64,000 nt of DNA from an uncultured bacterium (GTDB lineage Bacteria > Actinomycetota > Acidimicrobiia > Acidimicrobiales > VFJN01): the NCBI GenBank assembly GCA_963717085.1, contig CAVQVM010000022.1, positions 92,620 through 156,619 on the forward strand, in the 5' to 3' direction. Within the stretch, counting starts at the first letter, position 1; each line of letters begins with the position of its first letter. The notes below the pieces were generated by a model, which did no database searches, had not been told where the DNA came from, and saw nothing but the letters and a program-made list of their open reading frames with translations. Positions 4,028 through 59,888 of this stretch are shown here, piece after piece. The position numbers and the translations under genes were made by a program.

Positions 4028-5478
4028 CCCCGCCCTTGGGCGCGGCCCTCGACATCGCGGCCACCGTCCGCGCCGGCGAGCGCCCGGCGGCCGACGTCGT
4101 CGACGAGCACCTCGCCGCCATCGGGGCCCGCGAAGGCGAGATCCATGCCTTCAACCTGGTGCTGGCCGAGGAGGCGCGCCACGCAGCAGTCGCCATCGAC
4201 CGGCGCGTGGCGGCGGGCGAGGATCCGGGACCGCTCGCGGGCGTGCCGGTTGCGCTCAAGGACAACATCTGTACCGAGGGCATCCCCACCACCTGCTCGT
4301 CGCGCATCCTCGAGGGGTGGCGGCCGCCCTACGACGCCACCGTGGTCGAGCGGCTGGCCGATGCGGGGGCCATCGTCATCGGGAAGACCAACCTCGATGA
4401 GTTCGCCATGGGCAGCTCCACCGAGAACTCGGCGTTCGGTCCTACCCGCAACCCACACGACACGGGCAGGGTCCCGGGCGGGTCATCGGGGGGCTCGGCG
4501 GCTGCGGTCGCCGCCGGCTTCGCCGGACTGGGGCTGGGGTCCGACACCGGCGGTTCGATCCGCCAGCCGGCGGCGCTGTGCGGGGTCGTGGGCATGAAGC
4601 CCACCTACGGCCGGGTGTCCCGCTACGGCCTGGTGGCGTTCGCCAGCTCGCTCGACCAGATCGGACCGCTCAGCCGCACCGTCGCCGATGCCGCCGCGCT
4701 CTACCAGGCCATCGCCGGGCACGACCCGCGCGACGCCACCTCGATCCCCGAGCCGGTGCCGGACGTGATTGCCGGCCTGGCCGAGGGTGTCGCCGGGATG
4801 CGGGTCGGAGTCGTGACCGAGCTGTGCGAGGCGGAGGGCATCCAGCCGGATGTGATTGCCCGGGTGCGGCAGGCGATCGACGCCCTGGAGGGGGCAGGGG
4901 CCAAGGTCGAGGAGGTCTCCGTGCCCGCCGTCGTCTACGGACTGACGGCCTACTACCTGATCAACCCCGCCGAGGCGTCGAGCAACCTGGCCCGGTACGA
5001 CGGGGTGCGCTACGGGCTCCGCGTGGACGCGCCCACGACCGGCGAGATGTACGACCGCACCCGCACGGCCGGCTTCGGGGCCGAGGTCGAGCGCCGCATC
5101 ATGCTCGGCACGTACGCGCTGTCTGCCGGCTACTACGACGCCTTCTATGGCAAGGCGCAGCGGGTGCGGACGCTCATCATCCGTGACCTCGATGCCGCCT
5201 ACGAGCGCTTCGACGTGCTGGTCGGTCCCACCGCGCCGTCGACCGCCTTCCCGTTCGGAGCGAAGACCGCCGACCCGTTGACCATGTACCTGAACGACGT
5301 GTGCACGATCCCCTCGAACCTCTCGGGCCACCCCGCCATCTCGATCCCGTTCGGCACCGGCGACGACGGGCTGCCGGTCGGGGTGCAGGTGATGGCGCCG
5401 GCACTGGGCGAGGCGGCGATGTTCCGCGCCGCGGCGGCGGTCGAGGCGGCGGCGCCGTGGGGGGAGGACGAGGCGTGA
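4024..5478 (+). CDS. gatA: Asp/Glu-tRNA amidotransferase subunit A
   Basis: Amidase signature [12 protein letters not shown]; the KDNI...T.CSS region; sits between gatC and gatB. Confidence 0.95.
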
Positions 5479-6926
5479 GCACCACCACCAGCACGACCGC
5501 TACCGCCACGGCGTGGGAGACCGTCATCGGGCTCGAGGTCCACGTGGAGCTCGCCACCCGGACGAAGCTGTTCTGCGGATGCCCCAACCGGTTCGGCGAC
5601 GAGCCCAACACCAACGTGTGCCCGGTGTGTCTCGGCCTCCCGGGTTCCTTGCCCGTCCTCAACGAGCAGGCGGTCACCCTGGCGATGCGGCTCGGTCGCG
5701 CCCTGCGCTGCGAGGTGCGCCGGTCGATCTTCGCCCGGAAGAACTACTTCTATCCGGACATGCCGAAGAACTACCAGATCAGCCAGTACGACCTGCCCAT
5801 CAACGTCGAAGGCCGGCTCGAGCTGCCGCGTTCCGGCTCGATCGTTGGGATCGAGCGGGCGCACATCGAGGAGGACACCGGCAAGTCCACACACGTCGGC
5901 GGCGGGGGTCGCATCCACGACGCCGGCTACAGCCTCGTCGACTACAACCGCGCCGGCGTCCCGCTGCTCGAGATCGTGTCCAAGCCCGACCTGCGCTCGG
6001 CCGAGGATGCCCGGGCCTACGTGTCCGAGCTCCGCGCCATCCTGCTCGCCACCGGCGCGTCCGACGCCAAGATGGAGGAAGGGTCCCTGCGCGTCGACGC
6101 CAACGTCTCCATCCATCGCCCCGGCGAGCCCTTCGGCACCCGCTGCGAGATCAAGAACCTCAACTCGCTCCGGTCGCTGGGCCGGGCCATCGAGTACGAG
6201 GCTCGGCGCCAGATCGAGCTCATCGAGTCCGGTGAGCCGGTCCGCCAGGAGACGCGCCATTGGAACGAGGACGAGGGCCGCACGGGCACGCTGCGCACCA
6301 AGGAGGAAGCGGAGGACTACCGCTACTTCCCGGAGCCCGACCTGGTCCCGCTCGACCCGAGCGACGAGTGGGTCGCGCGGGTCGAAGCCGAGCTGCCCGT
6401 CCTGCCCGCCGAACGCCGCACCGCGCTGGCCGGCGCGGCCGGGGTCGCGCCCAACGCTCCCGCCGTCGCCATCGCCGTCGAGCGCGGTCTCGACAGCCTC
6501 GCCCTCGCCGCCATCGCGGCGGGCGGTGACTCGGCGCGGGTGCTCACGCACGTGGAGCACAACCTCGCCGTCGAGGGGGCCGAGGCGTTGGACCCCTCCA
6601 ACCTGGCGGCGTTGGTGTCCATGGAGACCGCGGGCGAGCTCACGGCCACCCAGGCCAAGGACGTGCTGGCCGAGATGGTGGCCAGCGGTGACGATCCCGC
6701 CACCATCGCCAAGGCAAAGGGCTACGAGGCCATGGACGCCGACGTGCTCGTCGCAGCCGTCGACCAGGTCATCGCCGCCACCCCGGAGCAGTGGGCCCGC
6801 TTCGCGGAGGGCGAGGGCAAGCTCATGGGCTTCTTCGTCGGCGAGGTCATGAAGGCCACCAAGGGCCAGGCGGACGGCAAGGCAGTGACCGCCCTGCTGC
6901 GCCAGCGGGCGGAGGCTGGCGCCTGA
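5475..6926 (+). CDS. gatB: Asp/Glu-tRNA amidotransferase subunit B
   Basis: [13 protein letters not shown]...KLFCGC...[15 protein letters not shown] start overlaps the gatA stop (GTGA). C-terminal YqeY-like tail. Confidence 0.95.
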
Positions 6927-6938
6927 CGACGACGGGCT

Positions 6939-7035
6939 GAGGCGATAGCGAACGCAGCGAGGCGCGTGAGGCAATTGCGAACGGGTTCCGTTCGGCATCG
7001 CCTCTGACTTCACAGGCCGTTACCTATTGCCTCGG
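6939..7035. repeat. 97-bp four-arm palindromic element, copy 1 (family A)
   Basis: Arms: GAGGCGATAGCGAACG (6939), GAGGCAATTGCGAACGG (6968), CCGTTCGGCATCGCCTC (6988), CCGTTACCTATTGCCTCGG (7017). Same architecture and spacing as the copies at 25308 and 41309. Confidence 0.85.
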
Positions 7036-8337
7036 CATGTGCGGGCCGCACGCGCGAGTCTGCCGCTCGTGACCTGGCAGGCGAGGCTGATCGAGCCCGA
7101 CGAGCTGCAGGCCAGCATCGACCTCACCGCGCTGGCGTTCGCCGTGGGCCCGCGGGCGACCGAGAACTACCGCAGGCAGGCCGGACTGGTGACGGAGCCG
7201 GACCGGGTGTTCGTGGTCAACGACGGCGATGTGCTCGCCGGCACCGCGGCCAGCTTCTCGATGGCGGTCGCGCTCCCCGGTGGCGGGACGCTGCCGCTCG
7301 CCGGCGTGGCCGAGGTGGGCGTGTCGCCCATCTACCGGCGGCGGGGGATCCTGCGCACGCTCATGGAGGCGGTACACGATCAGGCCCTCGACCGCGGCGA
7401 GCCGATCGCCGGGCTGACGGCAAGCGAGGGCGCGATCTACCGGCGCTTCGGCTACGGCGTGGCCACGCGGTTCCAGTCGCTCTCCATCGACCGGCCCGGC
7501 GCCGCCGAGATCGAGTCGCCGGCCGCGGACGGCGCCGACCCCACGGCGGCCGACGGCGCGAGCAGGATCCGTCTGCTGTCCGACGCCGAGGCCCACCCGG
7601 TGCTGCCGGCGGTGTGGGACCGGTACTGGCGCCAGATGCCGGGCGAGGTGGCGCGACCGGCGGGCTGGTGGGACATGCTGGCGCTGGACCCCGAGGAGGA
7701 CCGTGACGGGGCCAGTGCCCGCTTCGTCGCCGTGCACGACGACGTCACCGGGGTTCCCGACGGATTCGTCACCTATCGGATCAAGCAGGGCTGGGGCAGC
7801 GGGCGTCCCCTGCCCCACGAGCTGAGCGTCGAGTCCATCGTCGCGGTCGACGACGGCATCGTGGCTGCGCTGCTGCGCTTCGTGCTGGGCGTCGATCTCG
7901 TCGGCACCGTCGAATGGTCCGCGGCGCCGCTCGACCTGCCGTTCCGCTGGGGCCTCGCCAATCCGCGGGCCGCGCGGGTGACGCGGGAGCTCGATCACCT
8001 GTGGTTGAGGCCGTTCGACGTCCAGGCGTGCCTCGCGGGCCGCCGCTATGCGGTCGAGGGCGCGTGCGTGCTGGAGGTGATCGACCCGGTCCGCCCGGCG
8101 CTGGGCGGGAGGATCCGGCTCGAGGGCGGCCCCGACGGCGCGACCTGCCGGCGCAGCGACGCAGAGCCCGACCTGGTCGTCGGTGTCGCCGATCTTGGCG
8201 CCCTCCTGCTGGGCGGCGTGTCCTGGTCCACGCTCCATCGCGCGCGCCTGGTGGACGAGCGCACGCCGGGCGCCGTGACGCGTACCGACAGCATGTTCCG
8301 CGCCGACCGGGCGCCCTACTGCTCGACCGACTTCTGA
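7027..8337 (+). CDS. Eis-like GNAT N-acetyltransferase (GNAT plus C-terminal SCP2-like region)
   Basis: Acetyl-CoA motif VSPIYRRRGILRTLM; ~400-aa Eis/UPF0256-like length. The track start (TTG 7027) lies inside repeat A1, so the GTG at 7069 (VTWQARLIEPDEL) is a more likely start. Confidence 0.7.
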   Translation: MPRHVRAARASLPLVTWQARLIEPDELQASIDLTALAFAVGPRATENYRRQAGLVTEPDRVFVVNDGDVLAGTAASFSMAVALPGGGTLPLAGVAEVGVSPIYRRRGILRTLMEAVHDQALDRGEPIAGLTASEGAIYRRFGYGVATRFQSLSIDRPGAAEIESPAADGADPTAADGASRIRLLSDAEAHPVLPAVWDRYWRQMPGEVARPAGWWDMLALDPEEDRDGASARFVAVHDDVTGVPDGFVTYRIKQGWGSGRPLPHELSVESIVAVDDGIVAALLRFVLGVDLVGTVEWSAAPLDLPFRWGLANPRAARVTRELDHLWLRPFDVQACLAGRRYAVEGACVLEVIDPVRPALGGRIRLEGGPDGATCRRSDAEPDLVVGVADLGALLLGGVSWSTLHRARLVDERTPGAVTRTDSMFRADRAPYCSTDF

Positions 8338-12981: not shown

Positions 12982-14676
12982 ATGAGCGAGAGCGAGTCCC
13001 GCGTCGACATCAAGCACCGCAGCCGCGAGGTCACCGAGGGATTCGAGCGGGCGCCGGCCCGGGCCATGTTGCGGGCCATCGGCATGACCGACGACGACTG
13101 GGACAAGCCCCAGGTGGGCGTCTGCTCCTCGTGGAACGAGGTCACGCCCTGCAACCTGCCGCTCGACCGGCTGGCCAAGCGGTCCAAGGAGGGGGTCCGG
13201 GCCGCCGGCGGCTTCCCGATCGAGTTCACGACGATCGCCGTGAGCGACGGCATCTCGATGGGCCACGAGGGGATGCGGGCGTCGCTGGTGTCGCGGGAGG
13301 TCATCGCCGACTCCGTGGAGACGGTGATGCACGCCGAGCGGATGGACGCGCTCGTCACCTTCGCCGGCTGCGACAAGTCGCTGCCCGGCATGCTCATGGC
13401 GGCGGCTCGGCTCAACGTGCCGTCGGTGTTCGTCTACGGCGGGTCGATCCTGCCCGGCCATCACAACGGCCAGGCGCTCGACATCGTGAGCGTGTTCGAG
13501 GCCGTGGGGGCGCACGCCGCCGGCAGCCTCGACGATGCCGGGCTCGACGCCATCGAGCGCAACGCCTGCCCAACCGAGGGATCGTGCGCCGGAATGTTCA
13601 CCGCCAACACCATGGCGTCGGTGGCCGAGGCCCTGGGGATGTCGCTGCCGGGATCGGCATCAGCCCCCGCCGTCGACCGGCGCCGCGACGACCTGGCCTA
13701 CGCGTCGGGCCAGACGGTGGTGCGGCTGCTGGAGGCGGGCATCCGTCCCCGCCAGATCCTGACCAAGCCGGCGTTCGACAACGCCATCGCCGTGGTGATG
13801 GCGCTCGGCGGATCCACCAACGCCGTTCTCCACCTGCTCGCCATCGCCGCCGAGGCGCGGGTCGACCTGGCGCTCGACGACTTCAACCGGGTGGCGGCCC
13901 GGGTGCCACACATCGCCGACACCAAGCCCGCCGGTCGCTACCACATGAGCGACGTCGACCGGATCGGGGGCGTGCCCGTGGTCATGCGGCACCTGCTGGA
14001 GGCGGGACTGCTGGACGGCGACTGCCTCACGGTCACCGGCCGCACGGTCGCCGAGAACCTGGCGGCGATCGATCCGCCCGGGCCCGACGGCGACGTGATC
14101 CACCCCCTCGGCGATCCCATCCACGCCATCGGAGGCATCGCCGTGCTCAGCGGCTCGCTCGCCCCCAAGGGGGCGGTGGTCAAGGTGGCCGGCATCAGCG
14201 CCGACCGGTTCGAGGGCACCGCCCGTGTGTTCGACGGCGAGGACGGGGCGATGGACGCCATCCTCGCCGGGGCCATCGAGCCGGGCACGGTGGTCGTGAT
14301 CCGCTACGAGGGCCCCAAGGGTGGGCCGGGGATGCGCGAGATGCTGGCCGTCACCGGCGCGATGAAGGGCGCGGGCCGCGGGGGCGACTGCGCGCTGGTG
14401 ACCGATGGACGCTTCTCCGGCGGCACCCACGGGTTCTGCGTCGGCCACGTGGCCCCCGAGGCCACCGACGGCGGCCCCATTGCTCTGGTCGCCGACGGCG
14501 ACCGCATCGTCATCGACGTCCCCTCCAAGGCGATCGACCTGGCCGTGGATCCCGCCGAGCTGGCGCGCCGCCGCGCCGAGTGGAAGCTCCCCGAGCCCCG
14601 CTACACGTCCGGCGTCCTGGCCAAGTATGCGCGCCTCGCCTCGGGGGCGGAGCGCGGCGCCATCACCGAAGCGTGA
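12982..14676 (+). CDS. ilvD: Dihydroxy-acid dehydratase
   Basis: [50 protein letters not shown]. The true ATG is 24 codons inside the track ORF. Confidence 0.95.
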
Positions 14677-14689
14677 CGCCGGTCCTAGC

Positions 14690-14789
14690 CTTGAGGACCA
14701 AGAGCGAGCGTCCGTCGAGGGTGACGGGGAAACAAGGAGAAAGCGAGCGTGGCTTGAGCGGCACGGCCGCAGGCCAAGAGCGGAGAGCA
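14690..14789. repeat. Degenerate copies of the GAGCGG / CCAAGAGCG repeat family (family C)
   Basis: CCAAGAGCGAGCGTCCGTCGAG and GAGCGGCACGGCCGCAGGCCAAGAGCGGAGAGCA resemble the unit at 17986-18034, including a GGCC-GCA-GGCC mini-hairpin. Confidence 0.4.
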
Positions 14790-24464: not shown

Positions 24465-24529
24465 GGACCCAGGATGCCAGCGCGGCAGCGGGGGCGTTGG
24501 CTGTCACGCCGGGGCCGTAGGGTCCAGTC

Positions 24530-25309
24530 GTGCGCACGGCCGTGAGCCTCCCGCCCTTCACCGACGCAACGACCGTGGTCGCTCTGGCCGTCGAGGCCGA
24601 ACAGGCGGGTTGGGACGGGGTGTTCCTGTGGGATCACCTGGTCTTCGTCCGCGACCTGCGGCTCGACGTCCACGATCCCTGGGTGGTCCTTGGCGCCATC
24701 GCCCAGGCGACCGCGCGCGTGCGGTTGGGCACGCTGGTCACGCCCCTGGCGCGTCGCCGGCCCTGGATCGTCGCCAAGCATCTGACCACGCTCGACCACC
24801 TGAGCGGCGGGCGGGCGGTGCTCGGCGTCGGCCTGGGCGAACCGCCGGACGCCGACTTCGAGGCGTTCGGCGATCCCGGCGAGCGCAAGCAACGGGCGGC
24901 CATCGTCGACGAGGCGCTCGACCTGCTGGACGGCCTGCTGCGCGGCCCGGTGGCGCACGACGGTACCCACTTCCGCGTCGGCACCGAGATCCTTCCCCGG
25001 CCGGTACAGGAGCCCCGCCCACCGATCTGGGTAGCGGCCATCGTCCCCCATCGGCGCCCGATCGCGCGGGCGCAGCGGTGGGATGGCATCGTGCCGCTGG
25101 GGCCGCAGGGCTACACCAGCCCCGAGGAGCTTGCCGGCTACCTCCGCGACGTGGAGCGCCCGCCCGGGTGGGACGTGGTGGCGGGCCGCGCGCCCGGGGT
25201 GCCGGCCGACGAGTACGCCTCCGCCGGCGCCACCTGGCTCATCGACTCCGTCTGGCCCGAGGGCGACTGGGTGGCCGACATCCGCGCCCGCGTCACCGCC
25301 GGTCCCTGA
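24530..25309 (+). CDS. LLM-class flavin/F420-dependent oxidoreductase
   Basis: AEQAGWDGVFLWDHL...LGVGLGEP. 259 aa. Confidence 0.7.
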   Translation: MRTAVSLPPFTDATTVVALAVEAEQAGWDGVFLWDHLVFVRDLRLDVHDPWVVLGAIAQATARVRLGTLVTPLARRRPWIVAKHLTTLDHLSGGRAVLGVGLGEPPDADFEAFGDPGERKQRAAIVDEALDLLDGLLRGPVAHDGTHFRVGTEILPRPVQEPRPPIWVAAIVPHRRPIARAQRWDGIVPLGPQGYTSPEELAGYLRDVERPPGWDVVAGRAPGVPADEYASAGATWLIDSVWPEGDWVADIRARVTAGP

Positions 25310-25404
25310 GGCACTGACGAACGGTCCTGCGAGCCCGAGGCGATGACGAACGGTTGGCGTTCGGTATTGCCTCGCCTCCGGACCAACGTTCGCTGTTGCC
25401 TCGG
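25308..25404. repeat. 97-bp four-arm palindromic element, copy 2 (family A)
   Basis: Arms at 25308, 25337, 25357 and 25386. The first arm overlaps the TGA of the LLM gene. The element ends 9 nt before the serC stop (convergent genes). Confidence 0.85.
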
Positions 25405-25412
25405 GTGATCGC

Positions 25413-26549
<1,137 letters not shown>

Positions 26550-40607: not shown

Positions 40608-40645
40608 GGCCGTCGTCTCACATATCGGGATAGAATTCTCAGGAA

Positions 40646-41287
40646 GTGAACAGCATAAGTGGTGTCGGGGTCGTGGACAAGGCGGTCGGCGTGCTGGGCG
40701 CGCTCGAGCGTGGCCCCCAGTCGTTGGCGGAGCTGGTGGCCGCAACCGGCCTGACCCGGGCCACCGCCCACCGCCTGGCGGTCGCGCTCGAGGCCCACGG
40801 GCTCGTGCGGCGTGACGAGGACGGGCGGTTCACACTGGGGCTGCGCCTCATCGGGCTGGGCCATGCCGCCGCCGAGGCCGTCCCCGGCTGGCTCGACGCC
40901 CGCCCGGCGCTCGCCCGGCTCCAGGAGCAGACCGGCGAGTCGGTGCAGCTCTACGTACGCGACCGCGACGTGCGGGTGTGCGTCGAGTCGCTGGAGGCCC
41001 CGCACGAGCTGCGCACGATCGTGCCGGTGGGTGCCCGTCTGCCGCTCGACCGTGGGTCCGGTGGGAGGGTGCTCCGCGACGGGGCCGCGTCCGACTGGGT
41101 CGAGAGCGTGGAGGAGCGCCAGGCGGGGGTGGCGTCGGTGAGCGCCCCGGTCGTGGACCCGTCGGGCCGGGTGGTGGCCGCGGTGAGCGTCAGCGGTCCG
41201 GTGGATCGGACGACCCGCAGCCCCGGTCGCCGTTACGGAACCGCAGTGGCCGAGGCCGCCCGCCGCATCTCCCGGAGCCTCGCCTGA
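40646..41287 (+). CDS. IclR-family transcriptional regulator divergent from leuCD (LtbR-like position)
   Basis: N-terminal winged HTH ([39 protein letters not shown]). Same divergent arrangement as the IclR gene next to leuCD in corynebacteria and mycobacteria. Confidence 0.8.
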
Positions 41288-41308: not shown

Positions 41309-41405
41309 GAGGCAGTACCGAACGGTGACGCGCGCCCGAGGCAATGACGAACGGAGACCGTTCGCTATTGCCTCGTCCGCCAGAGTCCGTTCGCCATTGC
41401 CTCGG
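41309..41405. repeat. 97-bp four-arm palindromic element, copy 3 (family A)
   Basis: Arms at 41309, 41338, 41358 and 41387. Lies between the convergent IclR and acyl-CoA synthetase genes. Confidence 0.85.
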
Positions 41406-41463: not shown

Positions 41464-43014
41464 TCAGTTCACCTGGCGATCGCGGCCCTCCCAGTACGGC
41501 GTCCGGAGCTTGAACTTCTGCAGCTTGCCGGTGGCCGTGCGGGGGAGCGCGTCCCGTATCTCCACCGACGTCGGGCACTTGAAGTGGGCCAGGCGTTCGC
41601 GGCAGTGAGCGATCAGCGCCACCTCGTCGACGTCGGCGTCGGGGACGGGCACCACCAGGGCCTTGACGGTCTCCCCCCACCGTTCGTCCGGCACGCCGAT
41701 CACCGCCACCTCGGCTACCGCCGGGTGCGAGTGCAGCACGTCCTCGATCTCGATGGACGACACGTTCTCGCCGCCGGAGATGATCACGTCCTTCTTCCGG
41801 TCCGAGATGGCCAGGTACCTGCCCTCGGAGTCGTCGTCGATCATGCCGCCGTCGCCGGTGTGGAACCAGCCGTCCTCCAGGGCGGCGGCGGTGGCTTCCG
41901 GTTGGTTCCAGTAGCCGTCGAACACGACGTTCGAGCGGGCCAGCACCTCGCCGTCCTCGCTGGTCTGCAGCCGGACACCGAGGGTGGGCGCACCGGCCCG
42001 CCCCAGCCGGGTCGCCCGCTCGGCGGGCGACAGGTCGTCCCACTCGACCCGGCGCCGGTTGATGGTGAGGACCGGCGACGTCTCCGTGAGGCCGTAGAGC
42101 TGGATGAACTCCCAGCCGAGCTCCGTCTCCATCCGCTCGATCGTGCGGGTGGGTGGGGGCGCACCCGCCACCACCATGCGCACGCGGTCACGGCCTGGCA
42201 CCTCGCCGTCCCACTGGGCCGCCCCGTCGAGGATCGCGGCCACCACCGCGGGTGCCCCGCACATCAGCGTCACCCCGTGCTGTTCGACCCTGCGCAGGAT
42301 CTCGGTGCCGTCGACCTTGCGCAGCACCACCTGGCTGGAGCCCATGCCGGCCAGCGCGTACGGCATCCCCCAGCCGTTGCAGTGGAACATGGGCAGGGTG
42401 TGCAGGTAGACGTCGCGGTCGTTCACCCCCGTCTGCCAGCCGAAGACGGCGGCGTTGACCCACAGGTTGCGGTGGGTCATCTGCACGCCCTTGGGCCGGG
42501 CGGTCGTGCCGCTGGTGTAGTTGATCGTGGCGGTCGCGTTCTCGTCCGGCGCGTCCCAGGGCTCGGGGTCGCCGGCGTCGGAGGGCCACAGCATGGCGTC
42601 GGTCTCGGCGCCGAGGACGTAGCGGCGCTTGCAGTCGATGCCCGCGAGGGCCTCGTCGAGCTCGGGGTCGACCAGCAGCATCGTGGCCCCGGAATGCTCG
42701 ACGATGTAGCCGATCTCCTCGGCGTTGAGGCGGAAGTTGACCGGCACCAGCACGCGGCCCCAGGCGCTCACGCCGAAGAACGACACGAGCAGCCTCGCGG
42801 CGTTGTGCGACACGATGGCCACCCGCTCGCCCCGACCCACGCCGAGTTCGTCGAGGGCCGCCGCTTGCGCCCGGGCCAACTCGGCCACGCGCCGATAGGT
42901 GAGCGACCCCCACGAGGGTGCCGGCTGGTCGGGTTCGTCCACCACTCCGATGCGATCGGGGTAGACGAGCGCGGCTCGGTCCAGGTGATCGGCGATCGTC
43001 AACGGAACCTGCAT
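41464..43014 (-). CDS. Acyl-CoA synthetase (AMP-forming)
   Basis: YTSGTTARPKGV; GDGGMIDDDSEGRYLAISDRKKDVIISGGENV. 516 aa. Confidence 0.85.
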   Translation of the reverse strand: MQVPLTIADHLDRAALVYPDRIGVVDEPDQPAPSWGSLTYRRVAELARAQAAALDELGVGRGERVAIVSHNAARLLVSFFGVSAWGRVLVPVNFRLNAEEIGYIVEHSGATMLLVDPELDEALAGIDCKRRYVLGAETDAMLWPSDAGDPEPWDAPDENATATINYTSGTTARPKGVQMTHRNLWVNAAVFGWQTGVNDRDVYLHTLPMFHCNGWGMPYALAGMGSSQVVLRKVDGTEILRRVEQHGVTLMCGAPAVVAAILDGAAQWDGEVPGRDRVRMVVAGAPPPTRTIERMETELGWEFIQLYGLTETSPVLTINRRRVEWDDLSPAERATRLGRAGAPTLGVRLQTSEDGEVLARSNVVFDGYWNQPEATAAALEDGWFHTGDGGMIDDDSEGRYLAISDRKKDVIISGGENVSSIEIEDVLHSHPAVAEVAVIGVPDERWGETVKALVVPVPDADVDEVALIAHCRERLAHFKCPTSVEIRDALPRTATGKLQKFKLRTPYWEGRDRQVN

Positions 43015-43056
43015 GGCAACCCCTAGTGCTCGGCTCTCTGCCGCCTTATTAGCGCG

Positions 43057-45016: not shown

Positions 45017-45559
45017 ATGCAGGTGACGATGACCGTCAACGGCGAGGAAGTGACCCGCGACATCGAGCCCCGGCTACTGCTGGTCCACTTCGTGCGCGAC
45101 CACCTGGGCTTGACCGGCACCCACTGGGGCTGCGACACGTCCAACTGCGGCACCTGCGTGTTGTGGATGGATGGCGAGCCGGTCAAGAGCTGCACCGTGC
45201 TCGCGGCGATGGCCGCTGGGCGCACCATCCGCACGGTCGAGGACCTCGAGCGCGATGGCGAGCTCGACCCGATCCAGCAGGGATTCATGCAGTGCCACGG
45301 CTTGCAGTGCGGCTTCTGCACTCCGGGGATGATGATGACCGCCCGCTGGCTGCTCGATCACGATCCCGATCCCACGGATGACGACATCCGGGAGGGCATC
45401 TCGGGGCAGTTCTGCCGCTGCACCGGCTACGAGAACGTCGTGCGGGCGATTCGCTGGGCGGCAGAACACCCTGACGGTCTGGGGGAGGCCGCGGAGCCCG
45501 GCGCCGCCGACGACAGTGCGGCGCCGGGCGACGCGGTTTCCGAGGAGGTGTCGGCATGA
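45017..45559 (+). CDS. coxS: [2Fe-2S] small subunit
   Basis: CDTSNCGTC and CGFCTPG...CRCTGY cluster motifs. Confidence 0.9.
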   Translation: MQVTMTVNGEEVTRDIEPRLLLVHFVRDHLGLTGTHWGCDTSNCGTCVLWMDGEPVKSCTVLAAMAAGRTIRTVEDLERDGELDPIQQGFMQCHGLQCGFCTPGMMMTARWLLDHDPDPTDDDIREGISGQFCRCTGYENVVRAIRWAAEHPDGLGEAAEPGAADDSAAPGDAVSEEVSA

Positions 45560-59816: not shown

Positions 59817-59888
59817 TCGGGGGTGGTGTAATCGGTAACACAGCAGGTTCTGGCCCTGTCATTGGGGGTTCGAGTCCTCCCCCCCGAG
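59817..59888 (+). tRNA. tRNA-Gln (anticodon CTG)
   Basis: Hand-folded cloverleaf. Acceptor TCGGGGG/CCCCCGA. D-arm GTGT-AATCGGTAA-ACAC. Anticodon arm GCAGG-TTCTGGC-CCTGT. T-arm GGGGG-TTCGAGT-CCTCC. No encoded CCA. Confidence 0.85.

Follow-up and report, generated by a model that had tools for sequence, protein, structure and literature searches.

A putative REP/REPIN-like family of extragenic palindromes at gene 3' ends in Acidimicrobiales

Three four-arm elements and their neighbouring genes

The window, by which we mean the whole 64,000-nucleotide stretch of DNA analysed here, contains three copies of a 97-nt element to which no strand is assigned. They are 16-18 kb apart and lie among housekeeping genes that are syntenic with those of a related species. 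Copy 1 (6939..7035) follows gatB (5427..6926, plus strand; gene call and Pfam GatB_N and GatB_Yqey), the stop codon of which ends 12 nt before the element, and precedes a gene for an Eis-like GNAT acetyltransferase (7039..8337, plus strand; Pfam Acetyltransf_9/17 and SCP2_2). Copy 2 (25308..25404) is located between two convergent genes identified by Pfam and gene calls, a luciferase-like monooxygenase gene (24521..25309, plus strand) and a class-V aminotransferase gene (25413..26549, minus strand). The first two bases of its arm 1 complete the TGA stop codon (25307-25309) of the former, and the 3' end of the latter is 10 nt from arm 4. Copy 3 (41309..41405) likewise separates convergent genes, again recognized by Pfam and gene calls: an IclR-family regulator gene (40634..41287, plus strand) with its stop 21 nt before the element, and an AMP-binding, acyl-CoA synthetase-like gene (41464..43056, minus strand) with its 3' end at a distance of 60 nt. 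The Pfam assignments agree with the original prediction, which had placed copy 1 after gatB, copy 2 over a stop codon, and copies 2 and 3 between convergent genes. One detail of that description is probably an artefact of the open reading frame track, namely an overlap of the last arm of copy 1 with a TTG start of the Eis-like gene. This reading frame offers in-frame GTG codons at 7039 and 7069, both outside copy 1, and counted from TTG the GNAT domain does not begin before codon 19. The gene thus probably starts at one of the two GTG codons and not at TTG 7027, in which case it would not overlap the element.

Each copy comprises four 17-nt arms. Those of copy 1 are located at 6939-6955 and 6968-6984 in forward and at 6988-7004 and 7017-7033 in reverse orientation, with spacers of 12 nt and a 3-nt loop (6985-6987). 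The arms of copy 2 occupy 25308-25324, 25337-25353, 25357-25373 and 25386-25402, those of copy 3 occupy 41309-41325, 41338-41354, 41358-41374 and 41387-41403. When the 64-kb window was scanned with the arm motif GAGGCNNTNNCGAACGG, allowing up to two mismatches, 12 matches fell within the three elements, in clusters starting at 6939, 25308 and 41309, each in the order + + - - and with offsets of 0/29/49/78. Four isolated matches were found elsewhere (three with two mismatches, one with a single mismatch), and shuffled versions of the window yielded a mean of 4.4 matches and never 16. The three copies aligned gap-free in MAFFT, and a search of the window with a 30-copy profile (nhmmer) returned exactly these three sites with E-values of 1e-22 to 1e-27 and no other at E<=1. 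Motif scan, alignment and profile search thus confirm three 97-bp copies with arm starts at +0, +29, +49 and +78, and the automated alignment of 30 copies described below agrees with the initial count of the spacing.

Copy 3 is the best preserved copy of the window, with no mismatch in any of its arms; arm 4 of copy 1 and arm 4 of copy 2 carry two mismatches each. The blocks GAGGC and CGAACGG, at first regarded as invariant, are therefore nearly but not strictly so. The core of the family is the palindrome GAGGC-RAT-RR-CGAACGG / loop / CCGTTCG-YY-ATY-GCCTC, and the four-arm unit consists of this core and a second, outer arm pair one 29-nt period away. As had been anticipated, folding of either strand of the window copies gives an extended hairpin with two helices (-47 to -70 kcal/mol, z -3.7 to -9.8). 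Neither the 15 nt after arm 4 nor, on the opposite strand, the 15 nt after arm 1 contain a T run in the window copies. The element therefore has the GC-rich hairpin of an intrinsic terminator but lacks the U-tract after it, which makes it unlikely that the hairpin alone suffices to terminate transcription.

Two further features of the window are mentioned for completeness. A separate inverted repeat at 45484-45541 (24-nt arms, 83% complementary, 10-nt loop) is unrelated in sequence to the family, and a tRNA gene (59817-59888, plus strand) is the sole Rfam match in the window at gathering thresholds.

Four-arm and two-arm forms in related genomes

The inner hairpin GAGGCNNTNNCGAACG-N5-CGTTCGNNANNGCCTC was searched for in 185,579 species genomes. 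The possibility, considered at the outset, that only the three window copies exist did not hold: the matches listed, at least 115 DNA stretches, all come from eight MAGs of Acidimicrobiales, labelled as Acidimicrobiales, Actinomycetota or uncultured bacterium. The copy numbers and the taxonomic range of the family are lower bounds.

In the window and in seven of the MAGs nearly every match belongs to the four-arm form. The alignment of 30 such copies (A2) retains the offsets 0/29/49/78 and contains two indels of 1 nt each, both in outer arms (arm 4 of L079; arm 1 of L010, by eye), and none in the spacers. The window has a GC content of 71%, and its greatest similarity is to the MAG DASSDL01, with 86-88% nucleotide identity and synteny. 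Both syntenic blocks examined in that genome contain an orthologue of a window copy. The orthologue of copy 2 (L088:1607-1701) has a decayed arm 1, and that of copy 3 (L091:5481-5575) shows 3 differences in 97 nt. A four-arm copy is also common to all members of a second orthologous trio (L050, L070 and L010), which are 88-92% identical. Being retained at orthologous sites, the four-arm copies are older than those species splits and are vertically inherited. The same arm sequence recurs in MAGs that are no more than about 68-78% identical in the genes they have in common.

At L112:496-619 a fifth arm is present as a tandem duplication of the 29-nt arm-plus-spacer unit, an example of how additional arms can originate. 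At L096:4724-4864 a further forward match resembling an arm is situated 46 nt upstream, and at L018:2209-2362 one more reverse arm follows at 137 nt from the start. These loci suggest that arms multiply in 29-nt steps.

The MAG CAZWDB01 harbours a two-arm form, with at least 156 units in sampled blocks that total about 600 kb and, in places (L084, L045), almost one element per gene. The unit is a 51-bp near-perfect palindrome, CGAACTTGAGGCAATAACGAACGG-AWT-CCGTTCGTTATTGCCTCAAGTTCG. Among 150 copies scored against their own consensus, 43-51 of the 51 positions were identical, mostly 47-51, and 143 copies aligned gap-free in MAFFT. The more than 150 nearly identical copies indicate, as far as sequence can tell, a recent amplification. 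The 7 nt that flank the two-arm core (CGAACTT) are similar to the inner portion of the four-arm spacer (CGAGCCC), which is semi-conserved. In the main variant both arms carry CGATCG, which replaces CGAACG/CGTTCG; this was observed in 21 copies, as opposed to about 8 mixed ones. The double change (columns 25-26 and 36-37 of alignment A3) keeps the pair, and three further copies carry CGCACG/CGTGCG. The level of pairing and covariation observed in CAZWDB01 was reached in none of 500 shuffles. The double mutants may form one inherited subfamily.

The flanks of the two-arm units (122-copy profile; e.g. L011:5826-5930, L012:3562-3660 and L024:960-1090) are not conserved, yet they show a strong skew in composition. 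A C-rich stretch of about 50 nt on the 5' side (GC skew -0.17 to -0.43) and a G-rich stretch of about 30 nt on the 3' side (GC skew +0.22 to +0.45; on average about 1.6 runs of at least G3 per flank) enclose the palindrome, and the pattern is symmetric on both strands. Such flanks, which the four-arm copies lack, resemble a rut-like, C-rich tract with a pause hairpin after it. A copy-specific complementarity of the C-rich and G-rich sides was not detected in CAZWDB01, as native pairs matched no better than chimeric ones.

At one pair of homologous junctions an element is present in CAZWDB01 (L055:7856-7906) and none in the window (14676-14720). The L055 element lies 10 nt past the stop of a gene that matches the window gene ending at 14676 (GC3-based gene call), and the window junction contains only a short hairpin, GGTCCTAGCCTTGAGGACC, which includes CTTGAGG and may be a relic or a coincidence. 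The CAZWDB01 junction orthologous to that of copy 3 (L099:175-235) bears an unrelated palindrome with a 22-bp stem, GTTGCTTTGCGGCCTGAACCAC...GTGGTTCGGGCCGCAAAGCAAC, followed by a G-rich tract; this palindrome occurred once among the loci examined.

Stop codons, arm sequence and spacing

Genes were called with a GC3-based caller, and Pfam supported 15 of 16 open reading frames tested. Elements were found at 52 convergent, 56 tandem and 15 divergent junctions, compared with 92, 274 and 93 among all gene junctions. At tandem junctions the element abuts the stop codon of the upstream gene. Overall, the copies are mostly intergenic and biased towards 3' ends, and they often lie 0-25 nt after a stop codon or supply it. 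The distance from stop codon to first arm peaks at -10, at -2 and at +3 to +35 nt. In CAZWDB01, 74 of 139 adjacent gene 3' ends (53%) stop inside the element, with the TGA of cTTGAGGC as stop codon in 47 cases and the TAA of GGCAATAAC in 27, and most of the remaining adjacent reading frames end 3-35 nt upstream of it. The same -10 and -2 classes occur among the four-arm copies, and copy 2 of the window is a -2 case. Reading frames that stop within a CAZWDB01 element have their last 2-4 codons encoded by it; the third frame, which reads through the entire palindrome, is rare.

Because the copies follow stop codons so closely or provide them, adjacent transcripts of either direction would carry a highly stable hairpin at their end. 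This structure could shield the 3' end or cause RNA polymerase and ribosomes to pause. One explanation would reduce the element to this RNA-level effect, as a factor-independent bidirectional terminator or a 3'-stabilizing hairpin selected for its structure. The very stable hairpins on both strands, the strong preference for 3' ends and convergent junctions and the narrow distance to stop codons would fit, and the different palindrome with a 22-bp stem at the orthologous AMP-binding junction of CAZWDB01 suggests that a hairpin is wanted there. We nevertheless regard this explanation as quite improbable. A U-tract follows the hairpin on neither strand, and a study on mycobacterial RNA polymerase reports such a tract as a requirement of this enzyme at intrinsic terminators (PMC3993855). 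A close analogue in behaviour is the mycobacterial motif TRIT ('Tuberculosis Rho-independent terminator'), of which 147 palindromic copies are positioned around -8 of the stop codon in one genus and for which a binding factor is suspected (PMC3152330); its predicted sites coincide with few of the mapped termini (bioRxiv 10.1101/2022.06.01.494293). Moreover, no preference for one RNA strand was found, with 12 G-U and 13 A-C mismatches on the sense strand, and the asymmetric base of the loop bears no relation to gene direction. The conservation of the primary sequence across genera is not required by structure alone, and stems and spacers of the four-arm form do not covary, as set out in the following.

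In the 30-copy alignment, 78.7% of the cells of the nested hairpin are paired, compared with 78.3% after partners were shuffled among copies. The corresponding values are 53.3% and 52.4% for the spacers and 71.3% and 72.2% for the N positions, so that the lack of covariation at paired N positions noted for the window copies extends to all 30. Since the proportion of paired cells equals the shuffled level, the palindromy of the four-arm form is a property of the conserved arm sequence, and the pairing of variable positions is not constrained. Among 26 non-orthologous four-arm copies the outer GAGGC is 96% and the outer CGAACG 82% identical; these values are unbiased, as the search had been made with the inner hairpin alone. 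The two spacer halves of the same copies are 35% and 45% identical, close to the 31% of unrelated flanks, in line with the poor conservation of the spacers described originally. Spacers are common to orthologues only, and other pairs average 41%. Given this near-background similarity and the absence of any spacer indel in 30 copies, the length of the spacer is, to judge from the alignments, under selection. Between orthologues, 4.6% of positions differ in the arm blocks, a value biased low by the ascertainment of the inner arms through the search, as compared to 24% at N positions, 17% in spacers, 47% in loops and 12-15% in flanks. At each locus, then, the four-arm form keeps its arm sequence and its spacing, but not the pairing of its variable positions.

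This pattern strengthens the fit to protein-binding half-sites that had been proposed for the window copies, and the arms may be recognition sequences of a sequence-specific protein. Such a protein could belong to the host. In that case the arms would be half-sites on duplex DNA for a dedicated factor, for example a dimer of dimers, that acts at gene ends as a roadblock terminator, an insulator or a topological site, and the element would be kept for this role and would not be mobile in this lineage. Conserved arms with exact spacing at old inherited loci, spacers near background and the lack of covariation are in favour of such an array, as are arm blocks that change about three times more slowly between orthologues than spacers and flanks (4.6% versus 12-17%, with the ascertainment of the inner arms biasing the comparison), the persistence of the arm sequence among MAGs with about 68-78% identity in shared genes, and the lack of a strand or orientation signature of an RNA role. 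However, the more than 150 near-identical copies of CAZWDB01 look like amplification and not like independent evolution of sites, copies overlap or replace stop codons as insertions do, and the double-mutant subfamily keeps pairing rather than sequence. No candidate for the factor was found. Taken together, we consider a host DNA-binding-protein array unlikely as the explanation of the family.

The old four-arm copies do not stem from ongoing copying, because their spacers are unrelated. The conservation of their arms would thus require either selection at each locus, with the bound protein or the hairpin serving the host, or a process that homogenizes the arms only. Following the first of these options, the four-arm module might be more than selfish DNA and serve as a factor-dependent gene-end signal, a speculative proposal that we would not expect to hold. 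A dedicated, conserved protein of Acidimicrobiales would then read the GAGGC-N5-CGAACG arms in their fixed 29/20/29 geometry, either as a DNA duplex or in the folded hairpin, directly after stop codons. Transcripts would thereby be terminated, insulated or processed in a high-GC lineage that does without U-tract terminators, and purifying selection would act at each old locus on sequence and spacing, not on pairing.

Comparison with described repeat families

The sequence had not been recognized as a member of a described family, and our searches point in the same direction. Rfam gave no match at the element at gathering thresholds; with a relaxed E-value, nothing but sub-threshold noise from miRNA hairpins appeared. 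A full-text literature search for the arm sequences and for palindromic repeats of Acidimicrobiia was likewise negative, and no similarity was found in plasmid and phage collections (blastn) or in viral contigs. Two operators were also considered. The LexA consensus reads CGAAC-N4-GTTCG and that of HspR/HAIR CTTGAGT-N7-ACTCAAG. Both were rejected, since the corresponding spacings in the element are N7 and N27-29, respectively, and its sites are located at 3' ends.

The original prediction had described the behaviour of the element as REP/BIME- or MITE-like. The first part fits an extragenic, multi-copy, palindromic and 3'-biased element of one lineage. The second would imply a derivative of a DDE-type insertion sequence with arms as terminal inverted repeats, mobilized in trans. 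Palindromic ends and small size agree with such an origin, but we consider it very improbable. In 139 copies matches indicative of a target-site duplication of 2-8 nt did not exceed the control at any boundary, no repeated sequence of insertion-sequence length occurred in 850 kb of loci, and neither the loci nor the plasmids and phages yielded a parent element. An internal region is missing too, the 51-bp form being a palindrome and nothing else. By eye, the spacers showed no direct repeat that would betray a nested insertion with duplicated loop bases.

Integron attC sites also have four boxes at gene 3' ends, in the order R''-L''...L'-R', which is likewise forward-forward-reverse-reverse, and they are recognized in folded, single-stranded form. 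The near one-to-one ratio of elements to genes at L084 and L045 is reminiscent of cassettes. Still, a relationship of the elements to attC-like recombination sites is extremely improbable. Sites of this type conserve structure and not sequence, the opposite of what is seen here, and they form cassette arrays beside intI and contain a GTTRRRY core, none of which applies to the element. The window copies are instead dispersed at intervals of 16-18 kb among syntenic housekeeping genes, and the genes enclosed by closely spaced elements are unremarkable and point in both directions. Pfam assigned ten genes between closely spaced elements to common enzymes and regulators only, including APS kinase, DUF520, TetR, P5C reductase, TauE, HIT, methyltransferase, SLT and a luciferase-like enzyme. 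Clustering of the genes beside elements across genomes revealed no recurrent partner gene, but only syntenic orthologues and members of large enzyme families. The shared luciferase-like neighbour was rejected as a partner since the genes are not orthologous.

Besides TRIT, the strongest likeness is to the REP/REPIN-RAYT systems of Pseudomonas and Enterobacteria (PMC3116915, PMC3337134), which are dispersed, extragenic, multi-copy and imperfectly palindromic. REPINs have conserved ends in inverted orientation and between them a spacer that is less conserved but constant in length, and they form a hairpin (PMC3116915). The family described here combines conserved inverted ends (82-96%) with fixed-length spacers of lower conservation (35-45%) and can form a long hairpin in single-stranded DNA or mRNA. 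Like REPINs it lacks target-site duplications, is inherited vertically, persists at orthologous sites and has one lineage with a large, homogeneous population, here CAZWDB01. It is no REPIN in the strict sense, however, as each half is built from a pair of direct 17-nt arms with a period of 29 nt and not from a small palindromic REP. The four-arm spacers also lack compensatory changes, and a conserved GTAG-type tail outside the arms is absent, in contrast to the 5' GTAG/GGAG tetranucleotide of classical REPs. Its host belongs to the Actinomycetota (Acidimicrobiales), and Actinobacteria were not mentioned in the REP/RAYT literature searched. In REP/REPIN systems the repeats flank a single-copy RAYT gene (Y1 HUH transposase, PF01797) of the same genome. 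Here, no RAYT/Y1-like reading frame was detected below E=20 in 914 kb of element-bearing DNA, which represents fractions of the genomes; the queries were E. coli RayT and an HMM of 120 homologues, all of them close enterobacterial proteins, which limits the sensitivity of this search.

BIMEs of E. coli are mosaics of REPs that are bound by IHF, gyrase and Pol I. With them the element shares composite palindromic units of defined spacing at the ends of transcription units. BIMEs differ in alternating REP orientations (Y/Z), named linker motifs and a variable number of units, whereas here one fixed nested geometry with non-conserved linkers is found. TRIT of Mycobacterium (PMC3152330) resembles the family in being an actinobacterial, clade-restricted palindrome with conserved sequence and about 150 copies, bidirectional and narrowly placed at or over stop codons (here with peaks at -10, -2 and +3 to +35 nt). 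In both, the canonical logic of a U-tract does not apply and a factor that binds the motif is suspected. TRIT belongs to another clade and has apparently another sequence (Rfam gave no match at the element), and it is a single hairpin as opposed to a nested four-arm module. It is thus at most an analogue.

On balance, we interpret the window elements as members of a previously undescribed, lineage-restricted REP/REPIN-like (TRIT-like) family of extragenic palindromes of Acidimicrobiales, a reading to which we give slightly better than an even chance. If REP/REPIN-like, the family would be mobilized by an enzyme that recognizes the arms, the most economical candidate being one that acts on the DNA hairpin in the manner of HUH/Y1 (RAYT-type) transposases. 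A mechanism of this kind would explain both the missing target-site duplications and the palindromic double-mutant subfamily of CAZWDB01.

To our knowledge, almost nothing has been described of the non-coding or mobile-element biology of Acidimicrobiales, an order that is abundant in soil and water and largely uncultured. Novel here is the rigid nested architecture of four arms; elements of the REP/REPIN and TRIT kinds are already known. The family marks gene ends in several genomes of the order. In CAZWDB01 about half of the genes next to an element take their stop codon from it, which affects gene calling in MAGs and the C-terminal sequences of the encoded proteins. Should the module indeed prove to be a factor-dependent gene-end signal, the family would offer an accessible case of the kind that TRIT had been suspected to represent. 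Its arm motif is a defined bait for finding the putative protein that recognizes it. Within one family, a recently amplified, perfectly palindromic population that preserves pairing stands against an old, immobile one that keeps arm sequence and spacing but not pairing. This contrast could help to separate 'replicator' from host-level selection in REP-type elements.
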